Shown piece by piece: positions 22,137-51,250 of a DNA stretch of 64,000 nucleotides (positions are counted from its first letter, which is position 1; every line of letters starts with the position of its first letter). A program made the position numbers and the translations under genes. The notes below the pieces were generated by a model that was not told the DNA's origin, searched no databases, and saw only the letters and a list, made by a program, of their open reading frames with translations. Source of the DNA: an uncultured Myxococcales bacterium. Its GTDB lineage: Bacteria > Myxococcota > Kuafuiibacteriia > Kuafuiibacteriales > Kuafuiibacteriaceae. The DNA lies in contig CAYYOT010000012.1 in NCBI GenBank assembly GCA_964473255.1, forward strand, positions 17,927 to 81,926, read 5' to 3'.

Positions 22137-22149
22137 ACATGTGTTCAGT
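22133..22149. promoter_or_regulatory. putative LexA operator at the imuB 5' end
   Basis: CCATACATGTGTTCAGT matches CTRHAMRYBYGTTCAGS at 15 of 17 positions. Confidence 0.4.
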
Positions 22150-22245
22150 AGGATCGAGGTTTAGACCCCGTGAAGAGATCGGAAGCCCCGCGTTTCGCGA
22201 TTACGACCAGGGGATCCGATCTATGACGGACATATTCTGTCTGCT

Positions 22246-28641: not shown

Positions 28642-30918
28642 CTAGAGCAGACCTCCCCGTCGGCGAAGCCACCATTCTGCGGTCAGGAGCCCGAGGAGAA
28701 GCAGAAGCGGCACCGGACCGTCCCATATGGACAAGGTTAGGGTTCGATCGACTTCGACGCGCCGAGGATCCTCGAGCGCTATCGGTTTCAGAGGCTCACG
28801 GACGTCGGTGTAGGTTCCACCCGAGGCTTCGGCGATCGCCTTCATCAGGTCGGGCCGAGGGAAGGGCGACTGCATCTCGACGTCGCTCGCCTGGACGATC
28901 ACGGGTTCCCGCGCAGTGCCCACCGACTCCCCGCCGTCGTAGGCGCGAATCTCGAGCAAATAGCTGCCCGGTGCCAGCCCGTCGAAGCTGAGCACCGCCA
29001 GACCGTCGGGTCCGGTCGTGACCGCCTCGCCCCGGCCCTCGACCTCCGCGTCGAGAGGCACGAGTGAGGCTTCCACCTCGGCGCCTTCAATGCCGGAGTA
29101 GTCGAGGCCGAGCACACGGATCTCCGCGGATACCGGCTCATCCCGATAGACCACCGAACGGCGAAGGTCGGCCCGGACGCGGGAGAGCTCGGGATCGCGG
29201 ATGAGCCAGCGGAGAGACTGCTGCCAAAAACGCTCGTACTCGCGGCCCGAAGTCCCTTGCCCGACCGCCTCATAGCGCCAAAACCACAGGCTGTCCGTAG
29301 CCACGGCCATCGAGCGCCCGTCACCTACTTCGCGGATCGACACGACCGGCGGATTGCCGGGCAGAGTGGGGTGGGCGAGCAACGCTTGCGCTCCGGGCAT
29401 GAGCCCGGTCGATCCATTGAAGCCCTCGAGCTGCGGCAGGCGCTCGAACGTCGACGACGGAGCGACGCCGGGCTCCCCGATGCGAGTCACGGGATGGCGG
29501 CGGCCCTCGCCGGTGAGTCGGGGGGTGAAAGGCGCAGGGTCCCACGCCAGACCACCCCCGAGCCGTACGGGCAGAATCTCGGCGATCGGTGTTCCTGCGT
29601 AGAAGCCCGGTTCGAAGGACTGGTCACCCCCGATCATCAAGAAGCTCCCGCCGTCCAGGACGTAACGCCGGATGTTCCGGAGGTAGTGAGCCATTCGATA
29701 CGGTCGGTACGAGAAGTTTTGATAGATCACGACGTCGAAGCTGGGGAGCTCGGTCGTAAACAGGTCATTCACCGGAAACGGTATGAGCGCCAGCTCGTCC
29801 TGCGATGCCTTGTGTACGTCGGTGACCGACCGGAGGATGAAAAACGATATCAGGTCGACGTTCGGATTGCGTTTGAGCAGCTCGCGAAGAAAGCGGACGT
29901 CCCACGATGGACGGCCCGCCACCTGGAGGATGCGAATGCGGTCGCGAATGACGCGCAGCACGACGTCCTTCTGATTGTTGGCTTCGATCGCCTCCCCAAC
30001 CTGCACGGGCGTCGAGACCCCGTAGACCTCGCGGCCGACCTGGCGGGGCTTGAACTCGAAGGTCACCCGACCGACGCCGTCCTCAAGCTCGACGTCCTGG
30101 GTCTGCAAAACCGCCCCGTCCCGGCGGAGGGTCACCGGGACCTGAGAAAATCGAAGGCCGCGCGCCTCCACCTCCACGTCCATCGTCACCGTGTTGTGCA
30201 CGAAAGCGAAGTCGTCGACGCGAACCCGACGGATGGCCAGGTCTTTGGCCGAGTCGCGACGCGAAAAGCCAATGGTGTGGATCGGCGCCTCGACCTGCTG
30301 CGCCAAGCGTTCGGCTTCCTCACGGGTCAGCCCTTCGCTATCCGCTCCGTCGGAGTAGAGGATGACGGCGCCAACGTCGCGTCCCGCCGCCTGCCACTGA
30401 AGCTCCTTGAGGAGCCGGCCGAGCTGGGTCCGGCCCTGGTCGGCGGGCAGAGGGTTCGGCTGTTCGGCGATCGGCTGCATCCCTCGGCCGAACACGTAGC
30501 TCTCGAGGGTCGCTCGCGCGCTCAGGTCACGAAAAACACGGTCGTTGTCGGTCCGATGCGCCACGACCGCCTCCGCTCGGGTTTGGTCGCGGTCGCCCAA
30601 CCCCATCGACCGCGACCCGTCGTAGACCACCAAGACCTGGCCACGGATGGGGGAAACGGCCCGCAGCTCCACACCGGGCTGCAAGAACAGGATGAAAAGC
30701 AGTCCGGCCGAGGCCAGGCGCAGGACGAGCACCGGATAGCGAACTCGAGACGGCAGTCGCTGTGCGCCCCACGTGCTTCCGAGCACGGCGAGCGCCAGGA
30801 GACCGGCGGCCGCCCACCAAACCCCGAGCGGCCACTCGTTCAACCAGACGAATCGCCAGTCGTTGTAGAGGTCAGCCGTCCCCGGAGCCAGCCACGACAC
30901 GAGCCACTGCAAGAACAC
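28642..30918 (-). CDS. membrane protein with vWA domain and glutamine-amidotransferase-like domain (BatA-like)
   Basis: N-terminal TM helices. vWA MIDAS motif VVYDGSRSMG. Central ThuA/GATase1-like region (VVIYQNF...FLMIGG). Confidence 0.45.
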   Translation of the reverse strand: MFLQWLVSWLAPGTADLYNDWRFVWLNEWPLGVWWAAAGLLALAVLGSTWGAQRLPSRVRYPVLVLRLASAGLLFILFLQPGVELRAVSPIRGQVLVVYDGSRSMGLGDRDQTRAEAVVAHRTDNDRVFRDLSARATLESYVFGRGMQPIAEQPNPLPADQGRTQLGRLLKELQWQAAGRDVGAVILYSDGADSEGLTREEAERLAQQVEAPIHTIGFSRRDSAKDLAIRRVRVDDFAFVHNTVTMDVEVEARGLRFSQVPVTLRRDGAVLQTQDVELEDGVGRVTFEFKPRQVGREVYGVSTPVQVGEAIEANNQKDVVLRVIRDRIRILQVAGRPSWDVRFLRELLKRNPNVDLISFFILRSVTDVHKASQDELALIPFPVNDLFTTELPSFDVVIYQNFSYRPYRMAHYLRNIRRYVLDGGSFLMIGGDQSFEPGFYAGTPIAEILPVRLGGGLAWDPAPFTPRLTGEGRRHPVTRIGEPGVAPSSTFERLPQLEGFNGSTGLMPGAQALLAHPTLPGNPPVVSIREVGDGRSMAVATDSLWFWRYEAVGQGTSGREYERFWQQSLRWLIRDPELSRVRADLRRSVVYRDEPVSAEIRVLGLDYSGIEGAEVEASLVPLDAEVEGRGEAVTTGPDGLAVLSFDGLAPGSYLLEIRAYDGGESVGTAREPVIVQASDVEMQSPFPRPDLMKAIAEASGGTYTDVREPLKPIALEDPRRVEVDRTLTLSIWDGPVPLLLLLGLLTAEWWLRRRGGLL

Positions 30919-30924
30919 GCCGGT

Positions 30925-31791
30925 CTACCTCCGCCTCCGCAAAATGAATGGCGTGTGGACGAGGTCGTCCTTGTAGTCGAGGCACAGCGCATACATCGCG
31001 ATGTTGACGCCGAGTCGAAACGCCATCTCCCGCTGATCGTCGCCACCCGGAAGCACCTCGTGCTCCCACCGCCCGAACGCGTCGCGAGCCCAGGCCCCAC
31101 CGAGGTCGTTGTTCGAGTAGATCACGGCGTATCGCCCCTCGAGCTGTGAGCCCCACAAATGCGGCACGGACAGCACCCGCCCCGTCTGACCGGGGACCAG
31201 GTAGAACGTCTTGAAGAGGACGTGATCGACCGGGATCGGCGCGAGTTCCTCGCGCGGCAAGAGCGCCCGGAGCGTGCGGCGCACCGAGCGGTCGAAGGCC
31301 CCTCCGGCCACGGCGTCGGCATCGTCCACCAAGAGCACGCCGCCGAACGACAGATGCCGCCGCACGTTGCGCAGCGCCGCCTCCGACCACTCTGGCTCGG
31401 ACCCGGAACCCGCCCAGTACAGGAACGGATGGCGAAAAATCTGGGGCGATTCGGGCTCGAGGGCGGCCGGCTCGAGGGACACCTCGATGGACGTACGCTG
31501 GCCGATCTCCCACAGCAGGCGCCGAAGCGCGGTGGGCCGCGGGTCCCAGGTGCCCCCGGTCTTGAGCTGCCCAATGTGCAGGTCGGAGGGCGATGCCGCA
31601 CGGGTCGAGCGAAGGCCAGCCAGGCCGCCCATCGGTCCCAGCAGGCCGATGCCGGCCGATCCGAGCAGTGCGCGGCGCGTCGAACAGCCGAACCGCGAAC
31701 GTCGCTGTCGACGCGTCACCGCCTCATTCCTCCCGACAATAAGGCTGAGGCCAACCAATTTCGTGCCGCCGATCGCATCCGCGGAGTCCAT
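30925..31791 (-). CDS. DUF4159-like Tat-secreted protein
   Basis: Twin-arginine-like signal RRALLGSAGIG. HPFLYWAGSG and LGGAWA motifs recalled from DUF4159. Confidence 0.45.
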   Translation of the reverse strand: MDSADAIGGTKLVGLSLIVGRNEAVTRRQRRSRFGCSTRRALLGSAGIGLLGPMGGLAGLRSTRAASPSDLHIGQLKTGGTWDPRPTALRRLLWEIGQRTSIEVSLEPAALEPESPQIFRHPFLYWAGSGSEPEWSEAALRNVRRHLSFGGVLLVDDADAVAGGAFDRSVRRTLRALLPREELAPIPVDHVLFKTFYLVPGQTGRVLSVPHLWGSQLEGRYAVIYSNNDLGGAWARDAFGRWEHEVLPGGDDQREMAFRLGVNIAMYALCLDYKDDLVHTPFILRRRR

Positions 31792-31826: not shown

Positions 31827-33449
31827 ATGACGTTTCGAGGTATCCGCGCGTTATGGATGGTCTTCGGCCTGTTCGTCGCCGCTCCAGCCGTGGCGGCCGA
31901 AGGCATGTCGACGGTTCTGGTCTTGCCGGCAGAAGGTGAGGGTCGAGCCCTGGGGGACGCGGCAGACGCGGTTCAGCTGCGATTTCAAGGCGTCCTGCGC
32001 GCGGCCGGCGGCACGAATGTCGTCCACACCAAGATGTATCTCCGCGTCATGGAGCGATACGCTCGTCGGTTGACGGATCTGGACGGCGACCGGCGGATCC
32101 AGACCCTCGGTGAAATCCTGGGCGCCGATGTCGTCGTCGCCACCACGGTGCGGGTCGCGGCGCCCAATACGGTGCTCGACATTCGCGCGATCCCCGTCAT
32201 CTACAAGGACCTGTCGGGCAGTGAGACCCGGGGACAAGCTTCCGCCGGGTCCCTGCTGAAAGCCCTCGACCAGTCTCCGACGACGCTCCTGACGCTGCTC
32301 AAGGGTACCGGTCGTGTCCCCGACCTTTCCACGCCGGAGCCGGAGGCGATCGGCCCCCGTACGAGTTCGGAGCCCGCACTCCTGGCCTATTCAGCCTGCA
32401 ACATCGCCTTGATGGCCCAGCCGCTGGGTCTGCGTAACCCTGTCGTGATCGATGACGTCGTGCTGTCGCAATCGGAAGAGCTCTGTCGGGAGGCGCTCGC
32501 CAAGGATCGTACGATGGAGCAGGCGCACGCCGAGCTGGCCCTGATTCACGCCCTCCGCGGAGAGCAAGAAAAGGCCGAAGCCGCCCTCAAGAAGGCAAAG
32601 AAATCCCGCGCCTTTTCGACCAGCTATTGGCTCGCAAAGTTCTGGGTGCTCAGCCGCTACTATGACGTCGACCTCGCGCTGACCAGCCTGCGAAAAGCCA
32701 TCGAAACCAATCCTGGATTCATGCTGGGCCGCGGCTATTTGGGGGAGGCCCTGATCGCGCTCAAGAGACCGGCGGACGCGGAGACCGTTTTCCGCGAGTA
32801 CCTGACGGCCGCACCTCGGCAGTCTTGGGTGATGGGTCAGATCGGATACGCGCTCGCCAAGCAAAAGCAGTACGACGAAGCCATCGAGTGGACGGAAAAA
32901 GGACTGCGCATGGCTCCCGGCGACCCCGAGCTGCTGCTCCAGCTCGCCAGCCGCTTCATCGACGCCGGGCGGTACGCCGAGGCTTCGACTCTGCTCAAAC
33001 GCGTGGTCTCCCAGGGAGGGGCCCGCGGGGAAGTTCACCTGCGTTTGGGATACGCCTACCTGAAGCTCGGCAAGTTCAACGAAGCCGAGCAGGAGATGAT
33101 CCAAGCGATCAACAAGGCCGACAGTTCGTCCGAGTGGAGGACGCGAGGACGGGCGCGCTACAACCTGGCCGTCCTCTGGCTGGAGTCGGATGCTCCGGAG
33201 AACGCCCTGCGCCAGCTTCGAATGGCCGTGCAGGAAGGCTTTCGCGACAAGGGAGCACTGCAGGCGCGAGCCATGGCTCCGCTTCGCACAAAGAAGCAGT
33301 TTCAGGCGCTGATGAAGGCGCCCCCCAAGACCGGTATCGCGCCCCAGTTCGTCAGCCCGCTCGGCACGACGAGCGAGTCCGGCGAGCTCATCATCGACGA
33401 ATCGAAGGGCAAGAAGAAGAAGAACCCGAAGGTCCTGGAGCAGTTCTGA
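31827..33449 (+). CDS. secreted TPR-repeat protein with Lys-rich C-terminus
   Basis: Signal peptide plus multiple TPR-like helical repeats. Confidence 0.5.
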   Translation: MTFRGIRALWMVFGLFVAAPAVAAEGMSTVLVLPAEGEGRALGDAADAVQLRFQGVLRAAGGTNVVHTKMYLRVMERYARRLTDLDGDRRIQTLGEILGADVVVATTVRVAAPNTVLDIRAIPVIYKDLSGSETRGQASAGSLLKALDQSPTTLLTLLKGTGRVPDLSTPEPEAIGPRTSSEPALLAYSACNIALMAQPLGLRNPVVIDDVVLSQSEELCREALAKDRTMEQAHAELALIHALRGEQEKAEAALKKAKKSRAFSTSYWLAKFWVLSRYYDVDLALTSLRKAIETNPGFMLGRGYLGEALIALKRPADAETVFREYLTAAPRQSWVMGQIGYALAKQKQYDEAIEWTEKGLRMAPGDPELLLQLASRFIDAGRYAEASTLLKRVVSQGGARGEVHLRLGYAYLKLGKFNEAEQEMIQAINKADSSSEWRTRGRARYNLAVLWLESDAPENALRQLRMAVQEGFRDKGALQARAMAPLRTKKQFQALMKAPPKTGIAPQFVSPLGTTSESGELIIDESKGKKKKNPKVLEQF

Positions 33450-33470: not shown

Positions 33471-34817
33471 CTAACCGCTCGGCGTCAGAACGACCGGAAT
33501 GCTGACGAACACCGAGCCCCCATCGGGCTTCGGGAATCGCCAATACTTCGCTCGCTTCTTGATGCAGCTCTCGACGTCCGAGGAGCGGAGCGACCCGCCG
33601 AACTCGACCATCGACGTGCGCCCGTTTTCCAGGATCTCGAACTCGATGAGCAGCTTGCCCTTTAGGCTGGGGTCCCGCTTCAGGGCCCGCTCGTAGCAGC
33701 TCTTGATCGCACTCATGTTTCGTTTCATGACGCGATTGATCTGGGCGGCGGTGAGTTCGCCGTCGACTTCCGGCGCTTCGGCCACGGCACGGCCGGCGAT
33801 CGATGCTTCGGTCTTCTTGCCCGACGCCACGGAGCCTCCGCCCGACGTTCCGAGCTCGCCGATCCCGACGCCTTCTCCCGAGCCCCCGCCGCGGGTGCCG
33901 GCCCCGCCGTCGGAGGCGATGTCGACCCCTTGCACGCCGGAAAAGGCGTCGGACAGGCTGGATTCGGTGTCATCACCTTCGGAGAACACGTCGGCCAGGG
34001 CCCCGCTGCTTCCCTGGCGCGTCGAGCCCAGGACCTTGAGCAACCCCTTGCCCGCGACCTTCTTTGCGAGCTCCTCTTTGGGAGCCTTGGCTGGTTTCCC
34101 GCTGCTCGCCTTGGCCGGCTTCTTCTCCGGCTTCTTCTCCGGCTTCGCCTTCTTCTTGGACGCTTCCTTTTTGGCGCCGTCGTCGACCTCGGCCACCCGC
34201 TTCTTGGGCGGCTGAGGAATGCGGTCGGGCATGATCAGCTTCTGAAAGCGCGTATCGATTTCCTCGATCGAGGTCGGCTCGACGTAGGGGAGCGAGCGGG
34301 CGTACGTCACGACGGAGACGCAGACCACGGCGACGATGGTCAAAATCGTTGCGAACTGCGTGTCGATCGTCTGCAGGAAGGAACCACGAAGCTCGGCCGG
34401 AAGGACGGGCTTGACCGGTGCTGCCGCCTGGCGCTTGAACTGAAAGAGGACGGTAACGTCGCCGATGACGACTTTGCCGCGCGCGGTGTCGGCGATCTTG
34501 ACCGACCGGGCTCCACCGCGATCGACCACCGTCCCGTCGGCTTCCAGGGCCTGAAAATGGCTGACCTTCCCGCCGTCCATCTGGACCCGACCATCCATGC
34601 CGGGGAGATATCGGATGTGGTACGACGTTCCGTCGTAGTCGAAGAGGTTGAAGTTTGCGGGCAGAGCCTCGGAGCTCACGGTGAACGTGGCCTTGTTATC
34701 GGTGCCGATGGAGACCGACTCGCGACGCTTCAGCTCGCGCTCATCGATGATCTTTCCCCGCTGAACGATTCCGATCCGGAGGACCTTCGGTTCGCCGTCG
34801 CTCTTGGACTTCGACAT
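33471..34817 (-). CDS. GltG/NfsG (PglI)-like protein with N-terminal cytoplasmic domain, TM helix, Lys/Pro-rich linker and TonB-C-like domain
   Basis: Single TM (ILTIVAVVCVSVV). KKPEKKPAK linker. C-terminal AgmX/PglI-type domain (INRVMKRNMSAIKSCYERALKRDPSLKGKL). Confidence 0.5.
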   Translation of the reverse strand: MSKSKSDGEPKVLRIGIVQRGKIIDERELKRRESVSIGTDNKATFTVSSEALPANFNLFDYDGTSYHIRYLPGMDGRVQMDGGKVSHFQALEADGTVVDRGGARSVKIADTARGKVVIGDVTVLFQFKRQAAAPVKPVLPAELRGSFLQTIDTQFATILTIVAVVCVSVVTYARSLPYVEPTSIEEIDTRFQKLIMPDRIPQPPKKRVAEVDDGAKKEASKKKAKPEKKPEKKPAKASSGKPAKAPKEELAKKVAGKGLLKVLGSTRQGSSGALADVFSEGDDTESSLSDAFSGVQGVDIASDGGAGTRGGGSGEGVGIGELGTSGGGSVASGKKTEASIAGRAVAEAPEVDGELTAAQINRVMKRNMSAIKSCYERALKRDPSLKGKLLIEFEILENGRTSMVEFGGSLRSSDVESCIKKRAKYWRFPKPDGGSVFVSIPVVLTPSG

Positions 34818-34825
34818 GGGATTAC

Positions 34826-35095
34826 CTAAAAGGGCTCCTTATCGACCGACTCGAGAATCTTGGGAATGAAGCTGTTCTTGAGCTCCAGACCTTCGAAGTT
34901 CAGGTTCGAGCGCTGGAGGATGTAGAACGCCTGCGGTTTCTGGATTCGCCCTTCGATCCTCGTTTCTGCCAATCGAACCACCCTACGTCCGCGCCTCGAC
35001 TGCTGCGCCGACGCCTGGGAAGCGGTGAATACCATCAACCCGAGAGCGAAAAAAGGAACGGTCCGCCATGCGGATGACATCTGGACTCGCGTCAT
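34826..35095 (-). CDS. small secreted protein (GltF/NfsF-like by position)
   Basis: 89 aa with a signal peptide. 4-nt overlap with the upstream gene. Confidence 0.35.
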   Translation of the reverse strand: MTRVQMSSAWRTVPFFALGLMVFTASQASAQQSRRGRRVVRLAETRIEGRIQKPQAFYILQRSNLNFEGLELKNSFIPKILESVDKEPF

Positions 35096-36570
35096 TTCGG
35101 TCCTGCTCCTGGAGCACCTGGCTCATCAGACGTATCGGTCCCCGATTCGGTCTGTCGGGGAGCCGCGCCGGGCGATTCGGCCTGGCTCTCCTCCGTCTCC
35201 CGAGCCTTCCTCTTGGCTTCGCGAAGACGCCGCCGCTCCTCTCGCTCCATCGCTTTCTTCTCACGCTCGAGCCCGCGTTCGGAATCCGTGATGTAGCTCT
35301 GCACTCGCTGCTGCTCGTCCTCGGAAAGGCCCTCGACCTCGGCCAGGTAGGTCTCGAGGTAGGAACGGGCCTTCTTCCAGCGATCGAGGCGCTCGACTCC
35401 GGGAAGCTGATTGTCGAGGTGGAGAACCCCGAGATTGAAGACCACCTCGTGAAGGCTCGGATCCAGACTGGACGCCTTGATGTAGGCCTCCTCCGCCTTG
35501 GCGAACTCCTTGGCGCCCTTGTAGGCGTTGCCTAGGTTCACGTAGGCCTTCGCGAAATCGGGGTAGAGGGCCAAGGCGCGGTCGAGGACATCGATCGCCC
35601 CCGCGAAGTCGTTCGCCTCGACGTAGAGCGCGCCGAGGTTGTTGTAGACGCCGGGAAGATCCTGGCGGAGCTGAGTCGCGCGCTGAAATGCCTCGACGGC
35701 CTCGCTGCGCTTGTCTCGCGCCAGATAGACGAAGCCGAGATTGCTCCAGACCCGGGCTTCTTCCGGGTCTATCTCACGCGCTCGGTCGAGAACGGAGCTG
35801 GCAAGCTCCAGCTGACCTCGCTGATAGAAGATGATGGCGAGGTTCAGCAGGGCTCCGACGTTGCGCTCGTCGGTCTTGAGCACCTTCTTGGCCTCCGCTT
35901 CGGCCTTCTCGGTCTTCTGAGCCGCGATCCAGACCGAGACCAAGCGATTACGAAGCTGGGTGCTGCCGGGATCACGCTCGATGGCCTGGAGCAACCGGCG
36001 CTCCGCTGCGTCGAAGCGACCGCGACGGACGTCGAGATTGGCGAGATTCTCGATGGCAGCCACGTACCGGGGGTCGAGGTTCACGGCCTTCTGGTATTCG
36101 GCTTCGGCTTCGTCGTACCGGCCGGCCCGTTCGAGCATGACTCCGGCGTTGAAGTGAGCCGGCGGATAGTCCGGGGCGTCGCGGGCGACCTGCTGAAAAT
36201 CTGACAGAGCGGCGGACGGATCCGCGGTGGCCCGACTGAGGCCTCGCTCGAAAGTTCGGGCCGTCCCGCCCGAGAGCGTGGGGTACGCCGGAGCCGACGG
36301 CGAAGCGGCCGTCGGAGGCTGCACCTCGGGCGGCGGGGTCGCCGCTGCCTCGGACGTTGCCTCGGACGTTGCCTCGGGCGCTGCCGCGGGCGCTGGCTGG
36401 ACCGGAGGGGTTGAGTCGGCCGCCGAGGACGGCGACGCCGTCGTCGTCTCGGACGAGCCGCCGGCCGGGGAATCGGGAGGCGGCGTCGAACCGCTGCAGG
36501 CCACCGCTGCGGCCGCGACGATTGCAGTGATCCAGACGGGTATGGACTCGAGCCGGCGCATCGCCCTCAC
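35092..36570 (-). CDS. TPR lipoprotein (GltE/NfsE-like)
   Basis: Lipobox AAVACSG. Pro/Ala-rich linker. About 8 TPR repeats. C-terminal acidic/basic tail. Confidence 0.5.
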   Translation of the reverse strand: MRAMRRLESIPVWITAIVAAAAVACSGSTPPPDSPAGGSSETTTASPSSAADSTPPVQPAPAAAPEATSEATSEAAATPPPEVQPPTAASPSAPAYPTLSGGTARTFERGLSRATADPSAALSDFQQVARDAPDYPPAHFNAGVMLERAGRYDEAEAEYQKAVNLDPRYVAAIENLANLDVRRGRFDAAERRLLQAIERDPGSTQLRNRLVSVWIAAQKTEKAEAEAKKVLKTDERNVGALLNLAIIFYQRGQLELASSVLDRAREIDPEEARVWSNLGFVYLARDKRSEAVEAFQRATQLRQDLPGVYNNLGALYVEANDFAGAIDVLDRALALYPDFAKAYVNLGNAYKGAKEFAKAEEAYIKASSLDPSLHEVVFNLGVLHLDNQLPGVERLDRWKKARSYLETYLAEVEGLSEDEQQRVQSYITDSERGLEREKKAMEREERRRLREAKRKARETEESQAESPGAAPRQTESGTDTSDEPGAPGAGPK

Positions 36571-39500
36571 CCTCCCGTCTTGGGCGCGCCGCCTGGAGCA
36601 CCCGGGGTCGAGCCGCCGCGGACTCCGTCGTCGGTCGCACCGTCGCTCGGGTCACTCCCCGACGACGGCATGGAGGCCGCTCTCGGTCCCGCGTCCAAGC
36701 CCTCACCGGACACGACGTAGGTCTGGATCATCGACTTGCCCTGTTTCTGAATGGGGAACTCCCGCGGAGCGTACTTGTTCAGACCCTCGAGAATTCGCTG
36801 CGTCCATTCGTTGGTGACCTTCGTGCGACGCGCTTCCTGATAAGCCTTTCGGTACGCGGTCTCGGCCTTACGCTCCAGGATCGCCGCCCGGTCCTCGAGC
36901 TGTGCCTTGTACTCCATGGCCAGGTCCTCGTCGTTTTCGAACTCCTTCGGGATGGGAGCCGCGAAGAGCGATTCGGCGAATCGCTCGTAGCTGTGGCCCA
37001 CGCGATACGATGCCGCCAGGGTCGTTTCGACCCGCTTGTAAGCGAACACCGCCTTATAGGCGTTCTCGACGTCCCGCTGCGCCTTGGCCTTGGCCTGCAG
37101 AGCCTGAACCTGACGTCGTCCCGTACCCTCGATGGCGATCGCGTCGTATGCTCGGAACTTGGCCTCGGCCAACTCGAAGGCACAGCTGGCGGCATCCGCT
37201 CCTGCTTTGCTGCGCACCGACAGTCGGCTCTGGCGGAACTCCTTCAGACAGCGTGCATAGGCCGCCTCGGCTCGGTCGAACTTCTTCTGACTCTTTTCCG
37301 CATCACCGATCTTTCGGTACGCGAGGACGAGGCGCTCTCTCTGCTTCGGGTCGCGCCGGTACGTAGCGACGAAGGACTCGAGCGTGGCGATCATCCGCGG
37401 ATAGTCTTCCATCTTCTCGTAGACCAGCGCCGAGCGGAAGTAGACTTCGCCCGCGTCGTCGCGCTTGGAAAATATGGTCGCGTACTGCTTGTAGGCCGCG
37501 GCGGCCTCGTCGTACCGCTGCATGTTCTCCAGGACGACCGCCTGGTTGTACATGGCGTCGGCTCGGTTCTCCGAGTTCGGGTATCGTTCGGCGAGCCGAC
37601 CGTAGGCCGAGATGGCCGTCGCGAAATCGAAGCCCTGCTCCGCGTTGATCCCGACGCGAAACAGCGCCCGTGGCGCCAGCTCCGACTTGGGATAGTCGTC
37701 GTAGATCCGCGCGTACACCTGGGAAGCAGAGTCGTAGCGCTTGACCTTCTCGAAGGCGATGGCGGCGTTGAACAGCGCCTTGTCCGCGAACTCGTGCTGG
37801 GGATTCTCGTCAACCAGTCGCACGTAGGTCTCGGCGGCCTTTTCGTACTCTCCCGCCGAGTCGTACTTTTCCGCCTGCTTGAACTGAGCGCCAACCTTGA
37901 AGACGGAAAGCTGCTCCACGAAGTCTCGACGCTGAACGTCGTCCGTCTCGCTGGCTTCGGCTACGGCCATCAGGCGATTGGACACCTTCTCCACCGCTTC
38001 CCAGTCTTCGACGGCCAGATAGCTCTCGATGATCAGGTTCGACGCGTACCGAGCCACTTCGTTGTCTGGATAGTTGCTGACGATCGACTCGAAACGTCGG
38101 CGAGCCTCTGGGAAACGGTCATGGCGGTAGTACACCTCGGCGGCGCGATACGCGATCGCCGGTGACCGAGAGCCGTCGGGAATCAACGTGAGATAGCGGT
38201 CCGAGGCAGCGACCAGCTGCCCTCGAATCTCGACGAGATCCTTCGGTGCAACCGGCTTGGCCGCGCGTTCCGCCGCGGTCTGCAGCGGATACTCCGGGAT
38301 GCTGCCGGCCTCCACCTTCTGATCGATGAGCTTCTCGTAGGTAATGACGGCGGACAGCGCGGCTGCCTCCAGATGCTTGTTGTTTAGCGTGCTGTCCCGG
38401 ACCGACTCGTACTGGACGGCGGCGGCGGCGAACTGGTCGGAGTAGAACAGACACTCCGCCAGGTAGAACTCGAAGTCGTAGGCGTTCGATGATTTTGGGA
38501 ACCGCGTGAGGTACTGCTGGTAGGCACGCGCCGCCGCCTGATAGTTGCGGCTCGCGTCTGTGAGCCGACCGTCGGCCTTGTAGGCTTGGGCCTGCTGATG
38601 CCGGAAGATGGCCGCCGTGTACAAGGAACGCTCGGTGAGCGACTCTGCCTTTCTGATTGCGTCTTCGTCGTTCTGGTTCGCGACATACCAGAGTGAGCCC
38701 TGGGAATAGTCGGCCACGAGCTTCTCTCGGGCCACGGTCGCTCCATCGAAGTCTCGAAGCTGCTCGTGCGCGCGAACGATCCGGTCTTGGGCTTCCGGAT
38801 TATCGCGGTCGTTCGGGTATTTGGCGATCGCGAAGGCCAGAACTTCGATCGCCTGCGCGTAGCGCGTCTGGTCATATAGCACTTGACCGTATTGCTTCCA
38901 AATCTCGCCAGCGTACGGCTTGTCGTCGATCGTAGCGAGAACCGCCTTGGCCTTGGGAACGCCGCCCCAAACGTCGTCGGCCAGCGAGATGGCGACGTAC
39001 TGGATGGCCTCCGCCCGCAGCTCGGATCCCGAAACCCCGGTGAGCTCCTTCTGCCGATCTGCATAATCGATCAGCTCGAGAAACGATGCGACGGCTTCGT
39101 CGTAGCGGTCGAGACGATAGTAGGTCCATGCGATCTTGTAGAGCGCCTTGTCGTAGTAGGGACTCTCCGGGAAGTTCTTGACCTGAGCGTAAGCTTCGAT
39201 CGCCTTCTCCAGGGAAGCGACGTCGGAACGGTCGAAATAGATCTCTCCGATACGGGTCCATACCTCGGCCCGGAAATCGCTCGTGGGGTGATTCGCGACC
39301 AGCTGTAGATAAGCCTCCAGCGCCAGCTCGGGCTGACCCTGTTCGGAGTAGCTATACCCCAGCAGGTACCAAGCAGCGTCGGCCAATCGATAGTCGGGAA
39401 ATCGGGCGAGCAGTTGCCGATGGAGAGCGATGGTCGCCTCGTAGTTCGGCTCCGGGGCCACGGGTTCGGTCTCACGACGCCCTTCGTCATATGCGAGAAG

Positions 39501-40097
39501 CTCTTCGTCGTACTGGCGACTCGCCTGTAGGAATTCGTCACTCGATTTTTCGAAGTACAGCTCGGCCAGCCGGAACATCGCGTCGGGCGTGTACAGCGGG
39601 TCGTTGGGGTAGCGCTCGAGGAAGGCTTCGAAGCGAGCGATCGCTTCCAGGCGGCGCAAGCGCTCCTCGTCCTCGAGCTCCTGTATCGCCTGCTCGTACT
39701 GTAGGGCGAGAGCGGTCTTTTGCTGCTCGTACTGGAGCTCGATCTGGTCGCGGAGGTCGGCCGCATACGACCTGGCCACCGTTTCATAGCGCTCCATCTC
39801 CAGAGCCAGGGCCGCCACCTGGTCTTCGAAGCTGGTGATGAACTCATCCCCGACGGCGCCGAGCGGACGCTTGGGTAGCGCCTCAGTGCTGTCGATCAGC
39901 GAGCCGGGACCGCTCTCCGGGCGATCCGCGTCGTCCATTGCCGACGTGGTCGAGGTTGCGGTCGGCTCCGACGCGGTCGGTAGCGACCGCGCCCCGACGT
40001 CGGAGGTCGGCGGTTGTTCCTGCCCGCGGGCGAGGGGTCCCGCCGCGAGGAGTACGAACAGCGCGGGGAGCGCCACTGTGGACTTCGGCATCGTCAT
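36567..40097 (-). CDS. giant periplasmic TPR protein (GltD/AgmU or NfsD-like)
   Basis: 1176 aa. Signal peptide. TPR repeats along the whole length. Gly/Pro-rich C-terminal tail. Confidence 0.5.
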   Translation of the reverse strand: MTMPKSTVALPALFVLLAAGPLARGQEQPPTSDVGARSLPTASEPTATSTTSAMDDADRPESGPGSLIDSTEALPKRPLGAVGDEFITSFEDQVAALALEMERYETVARSYAADLRDQIELQYEQQKTALALQYEQAIQELEDEERLRRLEAIARFEAFLERYPNDPLYTPDAMFRLAELYFEKSSDEFLQASRQYDEELLAYDEGRRETEPVAPEPNYEATIALHRQLLARFPDYRLADAAWYLLGYSYSEQGQPELALEAYLQLVANHPTSDFRAEVWTRIGEIYFDRSDVASLEKAIEAYAQVKNFPESPYYDKALYKIAWTYYRLDRYDEAVASFLELIDYADRQKELTGVSGSELRAEAIQYVAISLADDVWGGVPKAKAVLATIDDKPYAGEIWKQYGQVLYDQTRYAQAIEVLAFAIAKYPNDRDNPEAQDRIVRAHEQLRDFDGATVAREKLVADYSQGSLWYVANQNDEDAIRKAESLTERSLYTAAIFRHQQAQAYKADGRLTDASRNYQAAARAYQQYLTRFPKSSNAYDFEFYLAECLFYSDQFAAAAVQYESVRDSTLNNKHLEAAALSAVITYEKLIDQKVEAGSIPEYPLQTAAERAAKPVAPKDLVEIRGQLVAASDRYLTLIPDGSRSPAIAYRAAEVYYRHDRFPEARRRFESIVSNYPDNEVARYASNLIIESYLAVEDWEAVEKVSNRLMAVAEASETDDVQRRDFVEQLSVFKVGAQFKQAEKYDSAGEYEKAAETYVRLVDENPQHEFADKALFNAAIAFEKVKRYDSASQVYARIYDDYPKSELAPRALFRVGINAEQGFDFATAISAYGRLAERYPNSENRADAMYNQAVVLENMQRYDEAAAAYKQYATIFSKRDDAGEVYFRSALVYEKMEDYPRMIATLESFVATYRRDPKQRERLVLAYRKIGDAEKSQKKFDRAEAAYARCLKEFRQSRLSVRSKAGADAASCAFELAEAKFRAYDAIAIEGTGRRQVQALQAKAKAQRDVENAYKAVFAYKRVETTLAASYRVGHSYERFAESLFAAPIPKEFENDEDLAMEYKAQLEDRAAILERKAETAYRKAYQEARRTKVTNEWTQRILEGLNKYAPREFPIQKQGKSMIQTYVVSGEGLDAGPRAASMPSSGSDPSDGATDDGVRGGSTPGAPGGAPKTGG

Positions 40098-42451
40098 TCG
40101 CTCAAGACATCGGCGAACTCGGCCTCCAGGGCCTGCGCCTGCTCCTGATACTCGCGGATTTTCGTGTCGACGCGCTCGGTCTCGGCCTGCTTGCGAGCCC
40201 AGGCGACGTCGATCAGCCCGACGTCCGCTCGCAGCAAGAGTTCGCCAAGCTCCGAATCGACGTTTCGTAAGGTCACGTCCGCCACCGGATCCAGCACGGC
40301 CTGTGCCGCGCCGCTCACCTGGGCGTACCTCGCTTCGAGCTCCTGAAGCTGAACCGACTCTCGAGCCAGCAGCTGCTGGAGCTCGACGACCCGATCGCGG
40401 ATCTGGCCGTCGATCCGGGCATCCAGCGCGTCCACCTCCCGCTGGATCGTCATGAGCTGCTGTCTCTGCTGGTCGTACCGAGTCACGAGCCCCAGCACTT
40501 CGGTGGCCACCGAGCCTCGAGCCTCTCGCAGTACGCCGAGCTCCTGGTCACGAAGTTCCTCGTACTGCGCCCTGAGCCGGGCGATCTGGAGAACGGTCGC
40601 GTTCGACTGAGCCAGGGCCCGCTGCCGCCGAAGCTGGGTGAGAACCTGGTCGAGCTGCTCTTCCAGCCGGGCGATGTTCTGCTGGCTCCTTTGAATTCGC
40701 GCCTCCATCACCTTCTGCTCCTCGTCGGAGAGCGTGTCTCGGTTGCGCGACAGCCACGATCGGACCGCCACGAGCTGGGCCCGCATCCCCGAGATCTTAT
40801 AGGTGAGCTGGTAGGCCCGTAGGTCGGCCTTTTCGAACACCTCTCCCACCTCTTGGCGGCGACCCTCGACCTCGTCCGTGGTCTCGGGAAGCTGCCGAAT
40901 CTCTGCGGCGACCCGCTTCAGCTCCGCATGGATCCGGTCGGCTTCGGCTTGCCGGTCCGCGGCGAGCACCTCTCGCGTCAAGCCGCGCTCCATCTCGAGG
41001 AGCGCGAGGTCGGCCGTGAGAACCCGGGCGCGCAGGGAGACCATCTGATCTCGAGGCCCTACCAGCCCGGGAAACATTCGATACTTCTGCTCGCCGGCCA
41101 GGGCCTCTCCCAGAAGCTCGACGAGTTCCCGGCTCTCCGCGAGATTCTTCCGCGACCGCACGAGATCGCTCTCGATGCGGACGGCTCGAGTCAGACCTTC
41201 CTGCTCGAGCGCATACTCCACGGCGATCTCGGGCAGGTCGCCCGGACGCTCTTGCCGCTCGAGCTCACTCGCTACGAGCGCATCGAAGAAAGCGTCCGTA
41301 TCCGCGGACCGACGCAGGAACGAACGTAGCTCACCTTGGGCCTGCCCGTACCGATCGATGATGCTCTCGAAGGTCTGGTAGGCCGTCTCCGGAGCGCCCA
41401 GGCGAATCTGGAGGTTGCCTTGAAGGATCCGGGCGTCGGGGTACAGCGTCGGGGAGGGTACCGTAGCCATGAGAAGCTCGGTGGCATCCAGGGCACGCTC
41501 GTACTCTCGACGCTCGACTCCGGGATCCGACGCCTGATTGGCGGCCCGAACGTGGGTCCAGGCCTTCTCGTACAGCATCTGCGAGTAGAGCGCCGAAGAC
41601 GGCTGCAAGTGCCCGTAGGCTTCGTCGCTCGCCTCGATGTGGCCGAGCTCCTGGTGGAGGCGTCCGAGCGACAGCCAGGCGAGCTCGCGCAGGGGACGCG
41701 TCTCGTCATCGGTCGGATCGAGCAGGTCGAGGACCTGACGGAACTCACCGATGGCGGCGGGATAGTTGTTCATGCGAACGAGGGTGACGCCGGCGTAGTA
41801 GCGGGCCCGCGGCCCCTGTTTCGAGGTGCCCGACACCCGGCGAAACGTCTCGAGAGCCTCGGGCAGGCGAGTCGAGTCCGTCCGAGCCGCGGCGAACAGC
41901 GCCTTTCCGTACGCATACTCGAGTTCGGGCCGGGCCTGGATGACCCCGGCCGGGAGGTAGCCCAGCACCCGGTCGAGATCATCGAAACGCCCATCCTTGG
42001 CCACGAGCTCGAGCAACCCCTCGACGACCTCGTCCAGCCGGTTTCCGGTCGAACGCGGCGCGACCTCTTCGTAGTAGCGCCAAGCGGCTCGATCGTTACC
42101 GGAGAGCCGCAGCGCTTCCGCGAGCTTGAAAACGGCCTCGTCGCGTCGGGGGTGCGTGCGCAGGGCCGGGTCTTCAACGACATCGATCAGAAGGATCGCC
42201 GCTCGAAGATAGTCCCCGACGATGAACTGCACCTCGGCATCCCCCAACCGAGCGTCCATGCGGCTCACGCCCTGCTGGGCACTGATGTGGGCGCTCTGCG
42301 AAGCCCGCTCCAGATCCACGCGCATCTGTCCGATGCGGCGATCGACATCGTCGGCGAGGCTCCGGCCCGCCTTGGTATCCGAAGCGCTCGCCCGGACGCT
42401 CGTCGCCAGAGCGAGCGTCGCGGCGGCGGCGATGCAAGCCCTTCTCGTCAT
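40094..42451 (-). CDS. secreted TPR plus coiled-coil protein
   Basis: Signal peptide. N-terminal TPRs. C-terminal long coiled-coil heptads. 4-nt overlaps on both sides. Confidence 0.45.
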   Translation of the reverse strand: MTRRACIAAAATLALATSVRASASDTKAGRSLADDVDRRIGQMRVDLERASQSAHISAQQGVSRMDARLGDAEVQFIVGDYLRAAILLIDVVEDPALRTHPRRDEAVFKLAEALRLSGNDRAAWRYYEEVAPRSTGNRLDEVVEGLLELVAKDGRFDDLDRVLGYLPAGVIQARPELEYAYGKALFAAARTDSTRLPEALETFRRVSGTSKQGPRARYYAGVTLVRMNNYPAAIGEFRQVLDLLDPTDDETRPLRELAWLSLGRLHQELGHIEASDEAYGHLQPSSALYSQMLYEKAWTHVRAANQASDPGVERREYERALDATELLMATVPSPTLYPDARILQGNLQIRLGAPETAYQTFESIIDRYGQAQGELRSFLRRSADTDAFFDALVASELERQERPGDLPEIAVEYALEQEGLTRAVRIESDLVRSRKNLAESRELVELLGEALAGEQKYRMFPGLVGPRDQMVSLRARVLTADLALLEMERGLTREVLAADRQAEADRIHAELKRVAAEIRQLPETTDEVEGRRQEVGEVFEKADLRAYQLTYKISGMRAQLVAVRSWLSRNRDTLSDEEQKVMEARIQRSQQNIARLEEQLDQVLTQLRRQRALAQSNATVLQIARLRAQYEELRDQELGVLREARGSVATEVLGLVTRYDQQRQQLMTIQREVDALDARIDGQIRDRVVELQQLLARESVQLQELEARYAQVSGAAQAVLDPVADVTLRNVDSELGELLLRADVGLIDVAWARKQAETERVDTKIREYQEQAQALEAEFADVLSE

Positions 42452-43230
42452 GGCTGCGTGGAACCGGGTGCCTTCGTCTGATTTGCATCGACGGCTGAGT
42501 CGGTCGTCTCGGCCGCTTGCGCATCCTGCTTGACCTTCACGTCGTAGCGTACGGCCAAGCGCTCGGTCACGTCGGTCGTGAACCCACCCTTTTCGTAGGC
42601 GACGACCTTGACCGTAGTCATCCGACCCTCTTCCGCAGTGAAGGCGAAGCTGCTCGGGATCCGGAACTTATAGGCCCGAAGATAGCTGAACACGCCGTAA
42701 CCGCTGCCCTGGAAGTGCATCATCACCGAGAGGTTGTGATTGCCGGGTACGATGCTGCCGTTGAAGAGTTCGATCTCCCGCTGATTATCCAGGCTGCCGT
42801 CGGTGGCCGCCTTAGAAAACAGTGGCGACCCGTCCAGCGAGTAGTCGAGCCGAGTGAGGTTGAAGGCACTGCCCACATCGTTGACGTGCATGATTCGGGC
42901 ACGGGCTCCCGAGATCACGCCGTTCAAGACCGTCTCTCGGAGGATCAGCAGCCGAGCCTTGCTCCGAAAAACCTGCTCTTTGAGCTCGTTCACGCGCTCT
43001 TCCAGCCCCCGAAGCCGGATCGCCTGGTCGGTATCCTCGACGGCGGGACGCATGGGCTCCGAGGTAGCTTCGGCATCGGCGGCTTCTGCTCCATCGGTCT
43101 CGTCGCCGGCCTCGGCAGCCGCGGACTCGGACTCCGGCGGCGGCTGAGCATCGGATTCGGTCTGGGCAGAGGCCGGCACTGCGACGAGACACAGGGCGGC
43201 GAACATCGGGACAGTGAAACGGATCGTCAC
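42448..43230 (-). CDS. secreted protein with acidic N-terminal region and coiled-coil; first gene of the glt/nfs-like operon
   Basis: Signal peptide MFAALCLVAVPASA. Acidic low-complexity region. LEERVNELKEQVF coiled coil. Beta-rich C-terminal half. Confidence 0.4.
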   Translation of the reverse strand: MTIRFTVPMFAALCLVAVPASAQTESDAQPPPESESAAAEAGDETDGAEAADAEATSEPMRPAVEDTDQAIRLRGLEERVNELKEQVFRSKARLLILRETVLNGVISGARARIMHVNDVGSAFNLTRLDYSLDGSPLFSKAATDGSLDNQREIELFNGSIVPGNHNLSVMMHFQGSGYGVFSYLRAYKFRIPSSFAFTAEEGRMTTVKVVAYEKGGFTTDVTERLAVRYDVKVKQDAQAAETTDSAVDANQTKAPGSTQP

Positions 43231-43409
43231 GGCACTACCTCGCCGGCCCCGAGGCGACCCCGAAGCACGGCCGCGCCAACCCTAGCATCAAGCCGTCCTG
43301 TCCATAACAGACCGGCCGGAAAAGGTGGTCCGGGGCTCGCGGCAACGGTCCAACGAAGCGGGTTCGATTGCCTTGCGACCACATCCGCCGTTCCGATACC
43401 ACCGGACCA

Positions 43410-43610
43410 ATGACCAGCGAAGTCCGTCGGCGCCACGACGAAGCCGTCCAAAAGGGTGATGCTGGTTACGAGGATCCGGAGACCGGTTTGTTCGTGCTCA
43501 CATCGGCGTTTCTGAAGCGCCGCGGCTACTGCTGCGGGCGTGGCTGTCGTCACTGCCCGTATGGTCCGGAGGAGCAGCGGCGGGCGGGGCGCCCCGGCTC
43601 GGAGAGCTAA
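43410..43610 (+). CDS. small cysteine-rich protein (DUF5522-like, CCGRGCRHCPY)
   Basis: 66 aa. C-terminal CCxxGCRHCPY motif. Confidence 0.4.
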   Translation: MTSEVRRRHDEAVQKGDAGYEDPETGLFVLTSAFLKRRGYCCGRGCRHCPYGPEEQRRAGRPGSES

Positions 43611-44880
43611 CGGGCGGAGTCGACCAGGCGAATCGGGGTGCGCGGATCGATGCGATACCCACTACGGTCACCCACGATGGCGCCTCCAAAGCCCATCTTC
43701 CTCAGGGTCGAGATGGCAACCTTCAAGCGGTTCTTGGCCGACGAAACGGAAATGCGCTGATCGGGCCAGCCCGCAGCGAACAATTCGTCGCCGGGAATGG
43801 GCCGACCCGGGTGCTCGATCCGCTGTCGGGCGAGCTCGACCAGGAGCCTCCGCAAGACCGGACGACGCTCACAGCCGACCGTCGGCGAGTCGGGCGCTCG
43901 GAACCAGGCGCCGTCGGCCGCGACCTCGACCACCCGCCCCGGCTGATGGTCCGCCGGTCGGGGGCGGCGGAGCTCATTGAGGGCTTGCGCGAGCAGGGCC
44001 CGCTGCACGTGGCGCTCGGGTCCCGCCCACAGACGCGCAGTCCCGGCGTCCCGGGCCAGAACCTTCGCCCGTTCGGCCCGCGTCTCCGCACCTGCGGTAT
44101 CCCCGCGGTCGAGGGCCCAATGGGCCTCGCTCATGGAAACGAGGGCTTCGGCCAATTCGAGGAGCGGCAGCACGGCCCGCGAGCTCGTCACCCGGGCCGA
44201 AGCCAACCGACGTTGGGCTCGAGCCCCGTGAAACCAGCGGCCTTCCGCCGCAGCGCACAGAGCATCGAAGGCGACGGCCTCCTCGACTTCACGTTCGCGG
44301 AGGAGCGTCTGAATCGCGTGGTCCAGGTGGCTTATCGCCGCCGAGCCGTCGGGCCCGCAGCTTTGCACCCAACCGAGAAAGCCGCGGCACCGGGCTTCGA
44401 GCTTCGTCGACCCCTCGGGACCTCGGGCCCAACGGCACGCCGCGGCCAGGCGCGTCTCGGACAGGGCGCGGTCGCCCTGGATGAACGCGGCCAACCCCAG
44501 CCAGAGGAAGGCCTCGATGTCGATCGGATCGGCGACCCGGCCCTTCTCCGCCGTCGCCAGCGCGGCATGAAACAGGGGTCCCGCTTCAGCGGGGCGACCT
44601 CGGGCGAGACACACCTGGCCGAGGAGCACCACCGCAGACCGTAGGTCGGCCCCCGGCCGCTGACGAAGCGAAGAATGCGCCCAGCGGGCCAGCTTCTCGG
44701 CGCGGTGGAGCCGGCCGCGCCGCGCGGCGCGGTACCCGAGCTCGAGGGCCCGATGGGCCGCTTCGCTCGATGCGCGGTCGAGGTTCGCGGGGTGAGACCA
44801 GTTGGCCCCAGGCAGCGGGGTCAAAGCCCCGGCATCCCCCCATACGGAAACGGCTTCGGACCTGGTCACCACGGGGAGGT
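43607..44880 (-). CDS. transcriptional regulator with TPR-like N-terminal domain and C-terminal OmpR/PhoB-type winged helix
   Basis: C-terminal ...SSAKNRLKVAISTLRKMGF...GYRID resembles an OmpR effector domain. The track ORF (to 45598) overlaps the upstream same-strand gene, so the real start is downstream of 44926 and is unresolved. Confidence 0.45.
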
Positions 44881-49933: not shown

Positions 49934-51250
49934 TCAGCGTCCAAAGAGAGACGGCGGACGCATCACCACGACGAACTGAAAGCTGAACCGAATGCTCCCG
50001 TCGGATTCGACGATGCCCGACGGGGGATTGGGGAACGGCTGAGCCTCGCGTATCGAAGCAATGGCGGCGCGATCCAGGAAATCGAGCCCGCAGGACTTGG
50101 CGACCTCGACTGAATCCAAACGCCCCTCGCGGTCGAGAACGATGGAGAGCAACGTGGCCCGGTTCCGCTGGCCGTAGATGGCACCGGTCGGGTCGCGTCG
50201 ACTGTACTCTCGCTGGGTGATGTCCCGCCAGTACCCCTCGACGCTGTCCTTCACCCGGATGAAGAACGTGGCGTACTTGAACTCCTTGGTGTTGAGGAAC
50301 GTCCCCTCACCCTCGGGCACATTCTCCACGTAGTCGGTGGAGGGCGACCCATTCAGTCGCGCAACCGTACCCAACGTCGGGCGCAAGGCCTCCAGGGAAG
50401 GAAGTCCACTTCCCCCACCCCGGCGGCCACGGCTCTTGCCATCGCCGTCGTCGTCGGAGCTGCCCCGTCCCGAGGGGTCGCCCATCTGGTAGCGAAAGCG
50501 GTCCGCGTTACCGCGGAGCGCTTCCGTCCCGGTCTGCTCCCGCAGGGACTGCGTCATGCCCGGGAGCTCCGACAACTTGAGTTTCAGCTCCCGCTGCTTC
50601 TTCAGGTCGGGCACTTCGAGGACAAACTGTTTTTTGCCCTTCCCTTTGCCGCCTTCCCCGTCCGTCTTCCCGCCGCCCTTACCCTCGCCGTTCGCCTCGA
50701 GCCCGAACGTCTTCTGGGCGTTGGGCCGCGGAGTCACGGCCTTGCGTTGAAGCTTGTTGGTCCGCCGCTTGAGATTCGGATCGCGGTCTTCGAGTCGTGC
50801 CGTCGTCTCCTTGTCGACGTTGGAGTTATGCCGCCCGAGGTACTTCGCGTCGGGGTTGGGAGAGTCGTCGCGGGTCGCAGGCACGTCGACGACCTGACCC
50901 CGGGGGCGATCCGACTTCGGTGACTTCTTTTCGGGTTCGGGGGTTGGCTCGGCAGCCTTGCGGGCCGTGCTCGCCGAGGAGCGCTTCTTTTGGGCTCTCT
51001 CGGACCGGGCTCGCTCGGCGATCGAACGGGCGCGGGACAGGCCCTCCTGCCAGGCGGCCGCGGGGAGGCGGACCATCTTCACCGGTTCGTCCGGCCGATA
51101 GGTCGGTGCCATATACCGGACGAGCATGGACCGGACCGGGATGTACAAGGCGGCGTGGATGCTGGCCGACAGCCCCAAGGCGATGGGAAGGGTCCAGGAC
51201 CCCCATGAAAGCCTGCGACGCCGCATCGGAGGGTTTTCGGAAATTAGCAC
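49934..51250 (-). CDS. TonB-family energy-transducer-like protein
   Basis: N-terminal TM. Lys/Gly/Pro-rich periplasmic linker. C-terminal TonB-C-like fold (LLSIVLDREGRLDSVEVAKSCGLDFLDRAAIASIREA...IRFSFQFVV). Confidence 0.55.
   Translation of the reverse strand: MLISENPPMRRRRLSWGSWTLPIALGLSASIHAALYIPVRSMLVRYMAPTYRPDEPVKMVRLPAAAWQEGLSRARSIAERARSERAQKKRSSASTARKAAEPTPEPEKKSPKSDRPRGQVVDVPATRDDSPNPDAKYLGRHNSNVDKETTARLEDRDPNLKRRTNKLQRKAVTPRPNAQKTFGLEANGEGKGGGKTDGEGGKGKGKKQFVLEVPDLKKQRELKLKLSELPGMTQSLREQTGTEALRGNADRFRYQMGDPSGRGSSDDDGDGKSRGRRGGGSGLPSLEALRPTLGTVARLNGSPSTDYVENVPEGEGTFLNTKEFKYATFFIRVKDSVEGYWRDITQREYSRRDPTGAIYGQRNRATLLSIVLDREGRLDSVEVAKSCGLDFLDRAAIASIREAQPFPNPPSGIVESDGSIRFSFQFVVVMRPPSLFGR

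Follow-up and report, generated by a model that had tools for sequence, protein, structure and literature searches.

We analyzed a 64-kb stretch of DNA from an uncultured Myxococcales bacterium, hereafter the window, and describe here six co-directional open reading frames (ORFs) on its minus strand that occupy positions 33471-43230 and encode proteins of 260, 785, 1176, 492, 89 and 448 aa. In the order of transcription they are W1 (42448..43230), W2 (40094..42451), W3 (36567..40097), W4 (35092..36570, with a possible true start at the ATG at 36561), W5 (34826..35095) and W6 (33471..34817). Our analysis suggests that they encode part of an envelope-spanning machine of the Glt/Nfs type, known from gliding motility (Glt) and spore-coat assembly (Nfs) in Myxococcus xanthus, since five of the six proteins show family-level homology to GltC, GltD, GltE, GltF and GltG, and that the nearest counterpart is neither Glt nor Nfs itself but a paralogous M. 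xanthus cluster known as G4. Related loci are numbered L001-L023 and homologues carry P numbers.

The genes are tightly packed. The first four junctions are 4-bp overlaps, in order ATGA, ATGA, GTGA and ATGA when the longest-ORF starts are taken, and the fifth, between W5 and W6, is a spacer of 8 nt (TAG GTAATCCC ATG). Two of the four overlaps hinge on the choice of start for W3 and W4: the database copy of W3 (P0001, 1174 aa) begins at the second ATG, and in the W4 gene a Shine-Dalgarno sequence, GGGAGG, stands 9 nt upstream of an ATG that lies three codons inside the longest ORF. Since 4-bp overlaps are found at four of the five junctions of the operon versus 2 of the 20 other same-strand junctions of the window, we consider the tight packing to be real. 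The spacing is also mostly tight in L001-L003, the three related loci for which genes were called, where the exact overlaps are not kept. The GC content at third codon positions (GC3) of the six genes is 0.73-0.84, typical for the genes of this 65% GC window. Upstream of W1 lies a non-coding region of 376 bp (43231..43606, minus strand), which we take as the leader or putative promoter region, and a scan for promoters and terminators gave nothing above the shuffled background, sigma-70-like promoters included. Judging from this layout the six genes form one operon, and the evidence supports an operon and nothing beyond it.

The initial annotation of the locus had counted seven genes, overlapping at every junction and hence co-translated in tight stoichiometry. 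Its own list names six, which is the number that we find. The sole candidate for a seventh is the ORF at 43227-43553, which has a GTGA overlap with W1. We judged it spurious because its GC3 is only 0.62, against 0.73-0.84 for the others, and tblastn found nothing like it in any of the related loci. The overlaps of the ATGA/GTGA type stand at four of the five junctions, with the 8-nt spacer as the exception, and the claim of stoichiometric co-translation over-reads a common feature of operons.

Signal-peptide-like N-termini are present in W1, W2, W3 and W5. The Pfam models match only TPR repeats in the operon proteins, and the NCBIfam models, whose equivalog cut-offs are 450, 225, 90 and 650 bits for GltC, GltE, CglF and GltG, respectively, are more informative; CglF is another name for GltF (PMC4488436). 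The best NCBIfam match of W4 is GltE, with an E-value of 2.1e-34 and 119 bits (cut-off 225) over 331 of the 411 model positions, i.e. near full length, and W4 also carries a lipobox, AAVAC|SGS. We thus regard W4 as a predicted GltE-like TPR lipoprotein. W3 consists of many TPR/YbgF-type repeats behind a signal peptide, and by these features, its size (in the GltD range of ~1100-1200 aa) and its identity to the orthologue of MXAN_1922 described below it is an exported GltD-like TPR scaffold. W2 begins with a TPR region and ends in a coiled coil with SMC-like matches at residues 470-779, and scores 45 bits on the GltC model (5.1e-12, cut-off 450). The match of W5 to the CglF model is weak (0.0068, 16 bits, cut-off 90) and covers nearly the full length. 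These scores suggest that W2 is GltC-like and W5 is GltF-like; they are weak by themselves and become stronger through the Myxococcus orthologues described below, and the positions of the two genes fit.

W6 matches the GltG model with an E-value of 9.8e-45 and 153 bits (cut-off 650), its residues 30-448 aligning to model positions 223-649. Its C-terminal domain passes the AgmX/PglI model NF033768, with 91 bits against a cut-off of 40. One transmembrane segment is predicted at ~150-177, followed toward the C-terminus by a TonB-like domain. The AlphaFold2 model has a confident beta-sandwich (11-129), a transmembrane helix (153-175), a disordered linker of ~130 residues rich in Lys, Pro and Gly, and a confident alpha/beta domain (341-447); we assign the N-terminal domain to the cytoplasm and the linker to the periplasm. 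In Foldseek the N-terminal domain found matches among FHA domains, with TM-scores of 0.6-0.67 on the target, and the C-terminal domain matched that of Helicobacter pylori TonB (6sly, 5lw8), while a sequence search of the PDB with W6 returned no meaningful match. Cambillau and Mignot 2025 describe GltG as a central FHA domain, a transmembrane helix, a linker and a TonB C-terminal domain, and in their model GltG is seated on the AglR pentamer by its FHA domain and helix, with the linker wrapped around GltD (PMC11761067). W6 has a single FHA fold in 448 aa and lacks the extra N-terminal FHA domain of GltG (640 aa), and the predicted structure therefore makes W6 a GltG-like bitopic protein that matches the part of GltG that begins with its central FHA domain and ends with its TonB domain. 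A representative search with W6 mostly returned short proteins of the W6 type (~450 aa), and three homologue searches were dominated by the clade of the window itself. Two homologues of W6 with 630-635 aa were considered as true GltG proteins and ruled out, as they score 112-121 bits on the GltG model.

These results agree with the initial annotation at the level of the family. Its descriptions of the proteins hold, given the signal-peptide-like N-termini of W1, W2, W3 and W5, the lipobox of W4, and the transmembrane segment and TonB-like C-terminus of W6. The resemblance to Glt and Nfs that it proposed is correct in the same sense, with a C-D-E-F-G order that mirrors nfsC-G and gltD-G. The similarity goes beyond generic TPR content, as W6 is not a TPR protein and matches both the GltG and the AgmX/PglI models, with the matches of W4 to GltE, W2 to GltC and, weakly, W5 to CglF in addition. 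The assignment of GltD-, GltE- and GltG-like components stands, with W5 as a probable GltF-like one, and to these we add the second gene, which had been left without an assignment, as probably GltC-like. The analogy to Glt and Nfs themselves does not stand, with the cut-offs missed and G4 as the positional orthologue.

The TPR units of the operon proteins also match the YbgF/CpoB and BamD models, and homologues of W6 are annotated as 'energy transducer TonB', in keeping with its TonB-type C-terminal domain. The operon could on these grounds be a Tol-Pal/CpoB-like or TonB-type system for envelope integrity or uptake, functionally unrelated to Glt. However, no gene for TolB, Pal or a TonB-dependent receptor lies nearby, the C-terminal domain of W6 is of the AgmX/PglI subtype, and the six-gene set co-varies with Glt-type clusters that bear an ExbD pair of the AglQ/AglS type. 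We consider this explanation quite unlikely.

W1 consists of a signal peptide, an acidic disordered linker, a long helix (68-102) and a beta-sandwich of eight strands (109-235), and has no match in Pfam or NCBIfam. Its AlphaFold2 model has a mean pLDDT of 75.6, and the folded part (residues 71-240) is mostly above 80. Foldseek gave weak matches to transthyretin-like or Bacteroides 'cell adhesion' sandwiches, and no outer-membrane barrel is among the 50 matches listed. W1 is thus, in the predicted structure, a beta-sandwich and not an OmpA-like or other barrel. We found 1083 homologues of W1, and it precedes the GltC-like gene in every related locus that reaches far enough, across phyla. It is absent from the table of glt homologues of Luciano 2011 (PMC3169522 Table S2). 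From this synteny W1 appears as the conserved first gene of the G4-type clusters, with no recognized counterpart in Glt. The proteins of the W1 family that carry a name at NCBI (P0128, P0134, P0138 and others) are called 'dihydrolipoamide acetyltransferase'. This label is probably a misannotation brought about by the Ala/Pro/Glu-rich linker, since W1 has no detectable domain of that kind. In a Polyangiales metagenome-assembled genome (MAG), at L023:72-8768, the W1 homologue is 47% identical and the GltC-, GltD- and GltE-like proteins are just 24-26% identical, from which the W1 family may be spread over more than one type of Glt-like paralogue.

M. xanthus has four gltD homologues, i.e. GltD itself (G1), NfsD (G3), MXAN_1922 (G4) and MXAN_1327 (G5), and the functions of G4 and G5 are unknown, their mutants moving normally (PMC3169522). 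The best named matches of W3 are Myxococcaceae proteins of ~1110 aa with 43-45% identity, and among the best 120 matches listed each named Myxococcaceae species or strain has one such match. In Myxococcus sp. Y35 the locus reads mglB-mglA-234-809-1111-489-91-447 aa. The proteins MXAN_1919 to MXAN_1923 have 447, 91, 490, 1111 and 809 aa (PMC3169522 Table S2), so that the five sizes agree with those of Myxococcus sp. Y35 within one residue, and mglA and mglB are MXAN_1925 and MXAN_1926. We therefore identify the mglBA-adjacent locus of Myxococcus as G4. All six proteins of the window are collinear with this locus (6/6), with identities of 52% for W1, 29% for W2, 44% for W3, 40% for W4, 53% for W5 and 36% for W6; the 44% of W3 spans 1043 residues of the 1111-aa Myxococcus protein, which corresponds to MXAN_1922. 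By collinearity and pairwise identity, the cluster in the window is the predicted orthologue of G4 (MXAN_1919-1924). G5 has a different gene order and different sizes, with an FHA-bearing GltG homologue of 749 aa (PMC3169522 Table S2), and these differences place the cluster in the G4 type and not in G5. In Table S2 of PMC3169522 the 'homologue of' column for MXAN_1919-1923 appears to be inverted, e.g. it sets MXAN_1922 against MXAN_4868, although in the main text MXAN_1922 is the gltD homologue. Allowing for this, the 809-aa MXAN_1923 appears to be the gltC counterpart.

The two clusters share the six genes and their order, with similar sizes (260/785/1176/492/89/448 aa here vs 234/809/1111/489/91/447 aa). 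They also share a pattern of scores below the cut-offs of the Glt models: the G4 proteins of Myxococcus reach 66 bits on GltC, 120 (119.9) on GltE, 32 on CglF and 159 on GltG, with E-values of 2e-18 for the 809-aa protein on GltC and 9.3e-8 for the 91-aa protein on CglF. The GltE and GltG scores are near-identical in the window and those of GltC and CglF are lower. Such scores are what we would expect of paralogues, given a genus known from the literature to have true Glt as well. The clusters differ in their surroundings, as the one in the window does not adjoin mglBA and is not followed by a cNMP-binding gene, a MXAN_1917-like gene, WzpB or WzaB.

Could the operon be the true gliding machinery of this organism, i.e. 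the orthologue of Agl-Glt? The organism is a member of the Myxococcota, and the best NCBIfam names are GltC, GltE, CglF and GltG. The two systems have homologous GltC, D, E, F and G components and the D-E-F-G gene order in common, and W6 retains the central FHA domain, transmembrane helix, linker and TonB-type C-terminal domain of GltG. However, at 45/450, 119/225, 16/90 and 153/650 bits the scores fall well short of the equivalog cut-offs, which all window proteins miss, and a Myxococcus genome, which by the literature has true Glt too, carries a separate cluster of the same order with equally low scores. W6 lacks the N-terminal FHA domain of GltG, W1 is an extra gene, and the GltC-like gene is part of the same operon in the window, unlike in Agl-Glt. 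Among the window ORFs we found neither AglRQS homologues nor any of GltA, B, H, I, J or K, and no match was of GltJ grade. In addition, a polar mutant of the gltD homologue MXAN_1922 of G4 glides normally (PMC3169522). We consider it very unlikely that the operon is the gliding machinery.

An Nfs-type machine for spore-coat assembly would fit the layout, as nfsC-G likewise form a C-D-E-F-G series at a single locus, within nfsA-H, and the AglRQS motor of Nfs is likewise encoded elsewhere and shared. But the locus in the window has only the C-D-E-F-G equivalents and W1, with a convergent TPR gene after W6, and lacks barrels of the NfsA/B type and NfsH; the first gene encodes a beta-sandwich and no barrel. 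The nearest counterpart in Myxococcus is the mglBA-adjacent G4 and not MXAN_3371-3378, and among the paralogues of Nfs the cluster in the window is not the nearest. Glt is the closest relative of Nfs and vice versa (PMC3169522), and hence the missed Glt cut-offs count equally against Nfs. It is very unlikely that the operon is an Nfs machine. As no window protein reaches a Glt equivalog cut-off, we regard the cluster as neither Glt nor Nfs.

The six-gene order is kept in 11 loci of the uncultured Myxococcota clade to which the window belongs, and is also found in Bradymonadales, in Microvenator and in unclassified MAGs, some of them labelled 'Spirochaetales'. The G4-type clusters under the 'Spirochaetales' label are in L016-L021, and reflect either a doubtful taxonomic label or a horizontal transfer. 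The clusters of L013-L020 and the 'core complex' of Geobacter and Gammaproteobacteria share the W1-C-D-E-F...G order with the window (23-48% identity in L013). They differ in having a MotA_ExbB and two ExbD genes between the F-like and G-like genes, where the window has just the 8-nt spacer, and a porin and an outer-membrane polysaccharide export (OPX) gene downstream. The three inserted genes lie at L013:14994-16947 and L016:15117-16943, and from their domains and position they are predicted to be an AglRQS-type motor.

After the G-like gene of the Bradymonadales and unclassified-MAG loci come a small gene of unknown kind, a porin with a beta-barrel and a ~200-aa Poly_export/SLBB lipoprotein, and the same set is found downstream of G4 in Myxococcus. 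The WzpB-like porin and the WzaB-like class-3 OPX protein are encoded at L013:18657-21184, L016:18491-21325 and L001:17048-19569. The Myxococcus porin and lipoprotein agree with the published lengths and positions of MXAN_1916 and MXAN_1915. These two, WzpB (421 aa) and WzaB (204 aa), form the outer-membrane module for the secretion of biosurfactant polysaccharide (BPS) (PMC9603273, PMC12819527). We found no discussion of the linkage of the G4-type cluster to motor and WzpB/WzaB-like genes in the literature searched.

This linkage raises the possibility that the G4 type is a transducer for polysaccharide secretion through a class-3 OPX protein and porin (BPS-like), which, driven by a motor, would move or organize the polymer in the way that Agl-Nfs does with the spore-coat polysaccharide. 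In M. xanthus, MXAN_1916 and MXAN_1915 come after the G4 cluster, the G4-type clusters of Bradymonadales and unclassified MAGs have the same barrel and OPX genes behind them, with an OPX identity of 41-44%, and Glt and Nfs are both tied to secreted sugar polymers. On the other side, the window and L002-L012 have no barrel or OPX gene beside the cluster, the synteny is confined to three lineages, and the paper on WzaB and WzpB that we searched does not mention Glt, Nfs, TonB or AglR; the link is one of synteny. We hold this explanation as a tentative one, less likely than not.

Taken together, the operon is probably an orthologue of G4 and codes for the 'transducer' of a Glt/Nfs-like trans-envelope machine (Group B of Luciano 2011 with GltF), its part in the periplasm and inner membrane, with a mechanism whose outline we draw as a whole by homology with the Agl-Glt model. 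W6 would reside in the inner membrane, where its FHA-fold domain and transmembrane helix would dock on a TolQ/ExbB-type pentamer with an ExbD-type heterodimer. This AglRQS-like motor would be encoded elsewhere in the genome and act in trans. The periplasmic linker and TonB-type C-terminal domain of W6 would grip the W3 scaffold, which W4, W5 and W2 would extend toward partners in the outer membrane, and W1 would be an additional accessory found throughout the lineage. In this way the proton-motive force would power movement or conformational work at the envelope. We infer the protein-protein contacts, the coupling to a motor and the cargo. The cargo would be neither gliding nor spore-coat assembly as such, and the handling of a secreted polysaccharide is the best lead, a speculative one, because of the recurrent linkage to WzpB/WzaB and the polysaccharide links of Glt and Nfs.

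Several points weigh against the transducer assignment. The GltC-like and GltF-like components are assigned from weak model scores. The initial annotation had advised looking elsewhere for the outer-membrane module and the AglRQS motor, and the 64-kb window holds neither: using Pfam and NCBIfam on most of the GC3-supported ORFs of at least 130 aa, and tblastn with AglRQS-like, barrel and OPX queries, we found no MotA/ExbB, ExbD, outer-membrane barrel or OPX gene in it. None of these was found within 10 kb of the cluster in L002-L012 either, and hence the coupling to a motor in this organism is our assumption. The only literature on MXAN_1919-1924 that we could find is Luciano 2011, a 2026 transposon-sequencing preprint making no mention of these genes, and the sole experiment on a G4-type cluster is the polar MXAN_1922 mutant, whose motility is normal.

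Some neighboring genes are kept along with the cluster. Directly upstream of the operon on the same strand is a gene of ~398 aa (43607-44803, minus strand), which keeps its place in L004, L005, L006 and L012, the four closest loci, with 38-43% identity. It has only a weak TPR match, its C-terminus looks by eye like a winged-helix DNA-binding domain, and the protein may be a regulator. Right after the operon is the convergent gene of an exported TPR protein of 540 aa (31827-33449, plus strand), kept at this position in L004, L005 and L012 and absent in L002 and L003. Beyond it are a DUF4159 gene (288 aa) and a GATase1-like gene (758 aa) at 28642-31791 on the minus strand. These two follow the G4-type cluster in 10 of the 11 loci of the window clade, i.e. 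all that extend far enough, and are followed by typA in the window and L002. They may be functionally linked to the cluster or merely syntenic with it.

The window also encodes just one other protein with a TonB-type C-terminal domain (49934-51250, minus strand, 438 aa, TIGR01352 6.6e-11), unlinked to the operon, and an exosortase (EpsH) domain fused to a CAAX/Rce1-like protease domain (8456-9991, plus strand, 511 aa). A DnaE-type polymerase alpha subunit of 1061 aa (10794-13979, minus strand) lies 6 kb from an IMS/ImuB-like Y-family protein (20403-22160, minus strand), and the two may be components of an error-prone 'mutasome'. The remaining genes of the window have housekeeping and unrelated functions.

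To our knowledge no bacterial system outside the Glt/Nfs class has a motor of the Tol/Exb type that drives directed surface transport, and the functions of its G4, G5 and 'core complex' paralogues have been open since 2011. As the locus shows, clusters of the G4 type form a stable and widely conserved unit of six genes in uncultured Myxococcota. Taken alone, the operon in the window is an unremarkable orthologue of a cluster that had been catalogued before, and the interest comes mostly from the leads given by the related loci, i.e. the extra subunit W1, the embedded motor in Bradymonadales and unclassified MAGs, and the recurrent link to WzpB/WzaB-type export. We speculate that the G4 type may be an ancient third specialization beside Agl-Glt and Agl-Nfs, present in at least two phyla, in which a TolQRR-like motor driven by the proton-motive force would act through the GltG/D/E/F/C scaffold and W1, as a subunit not recognized before, on a class-3 OPX/Wzp porin and thus on a secreted BPS-like polysaccharide. 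The window would then hold a derived form, with the transducer operon split from the motor and from the outer-membrane module, and such a split from the motor would imply that a motor is shared in trans, as in Nfs. Combined, these leads turn the 'unknown function' of G4 into a hypothesis that is testable in M. xanthus.

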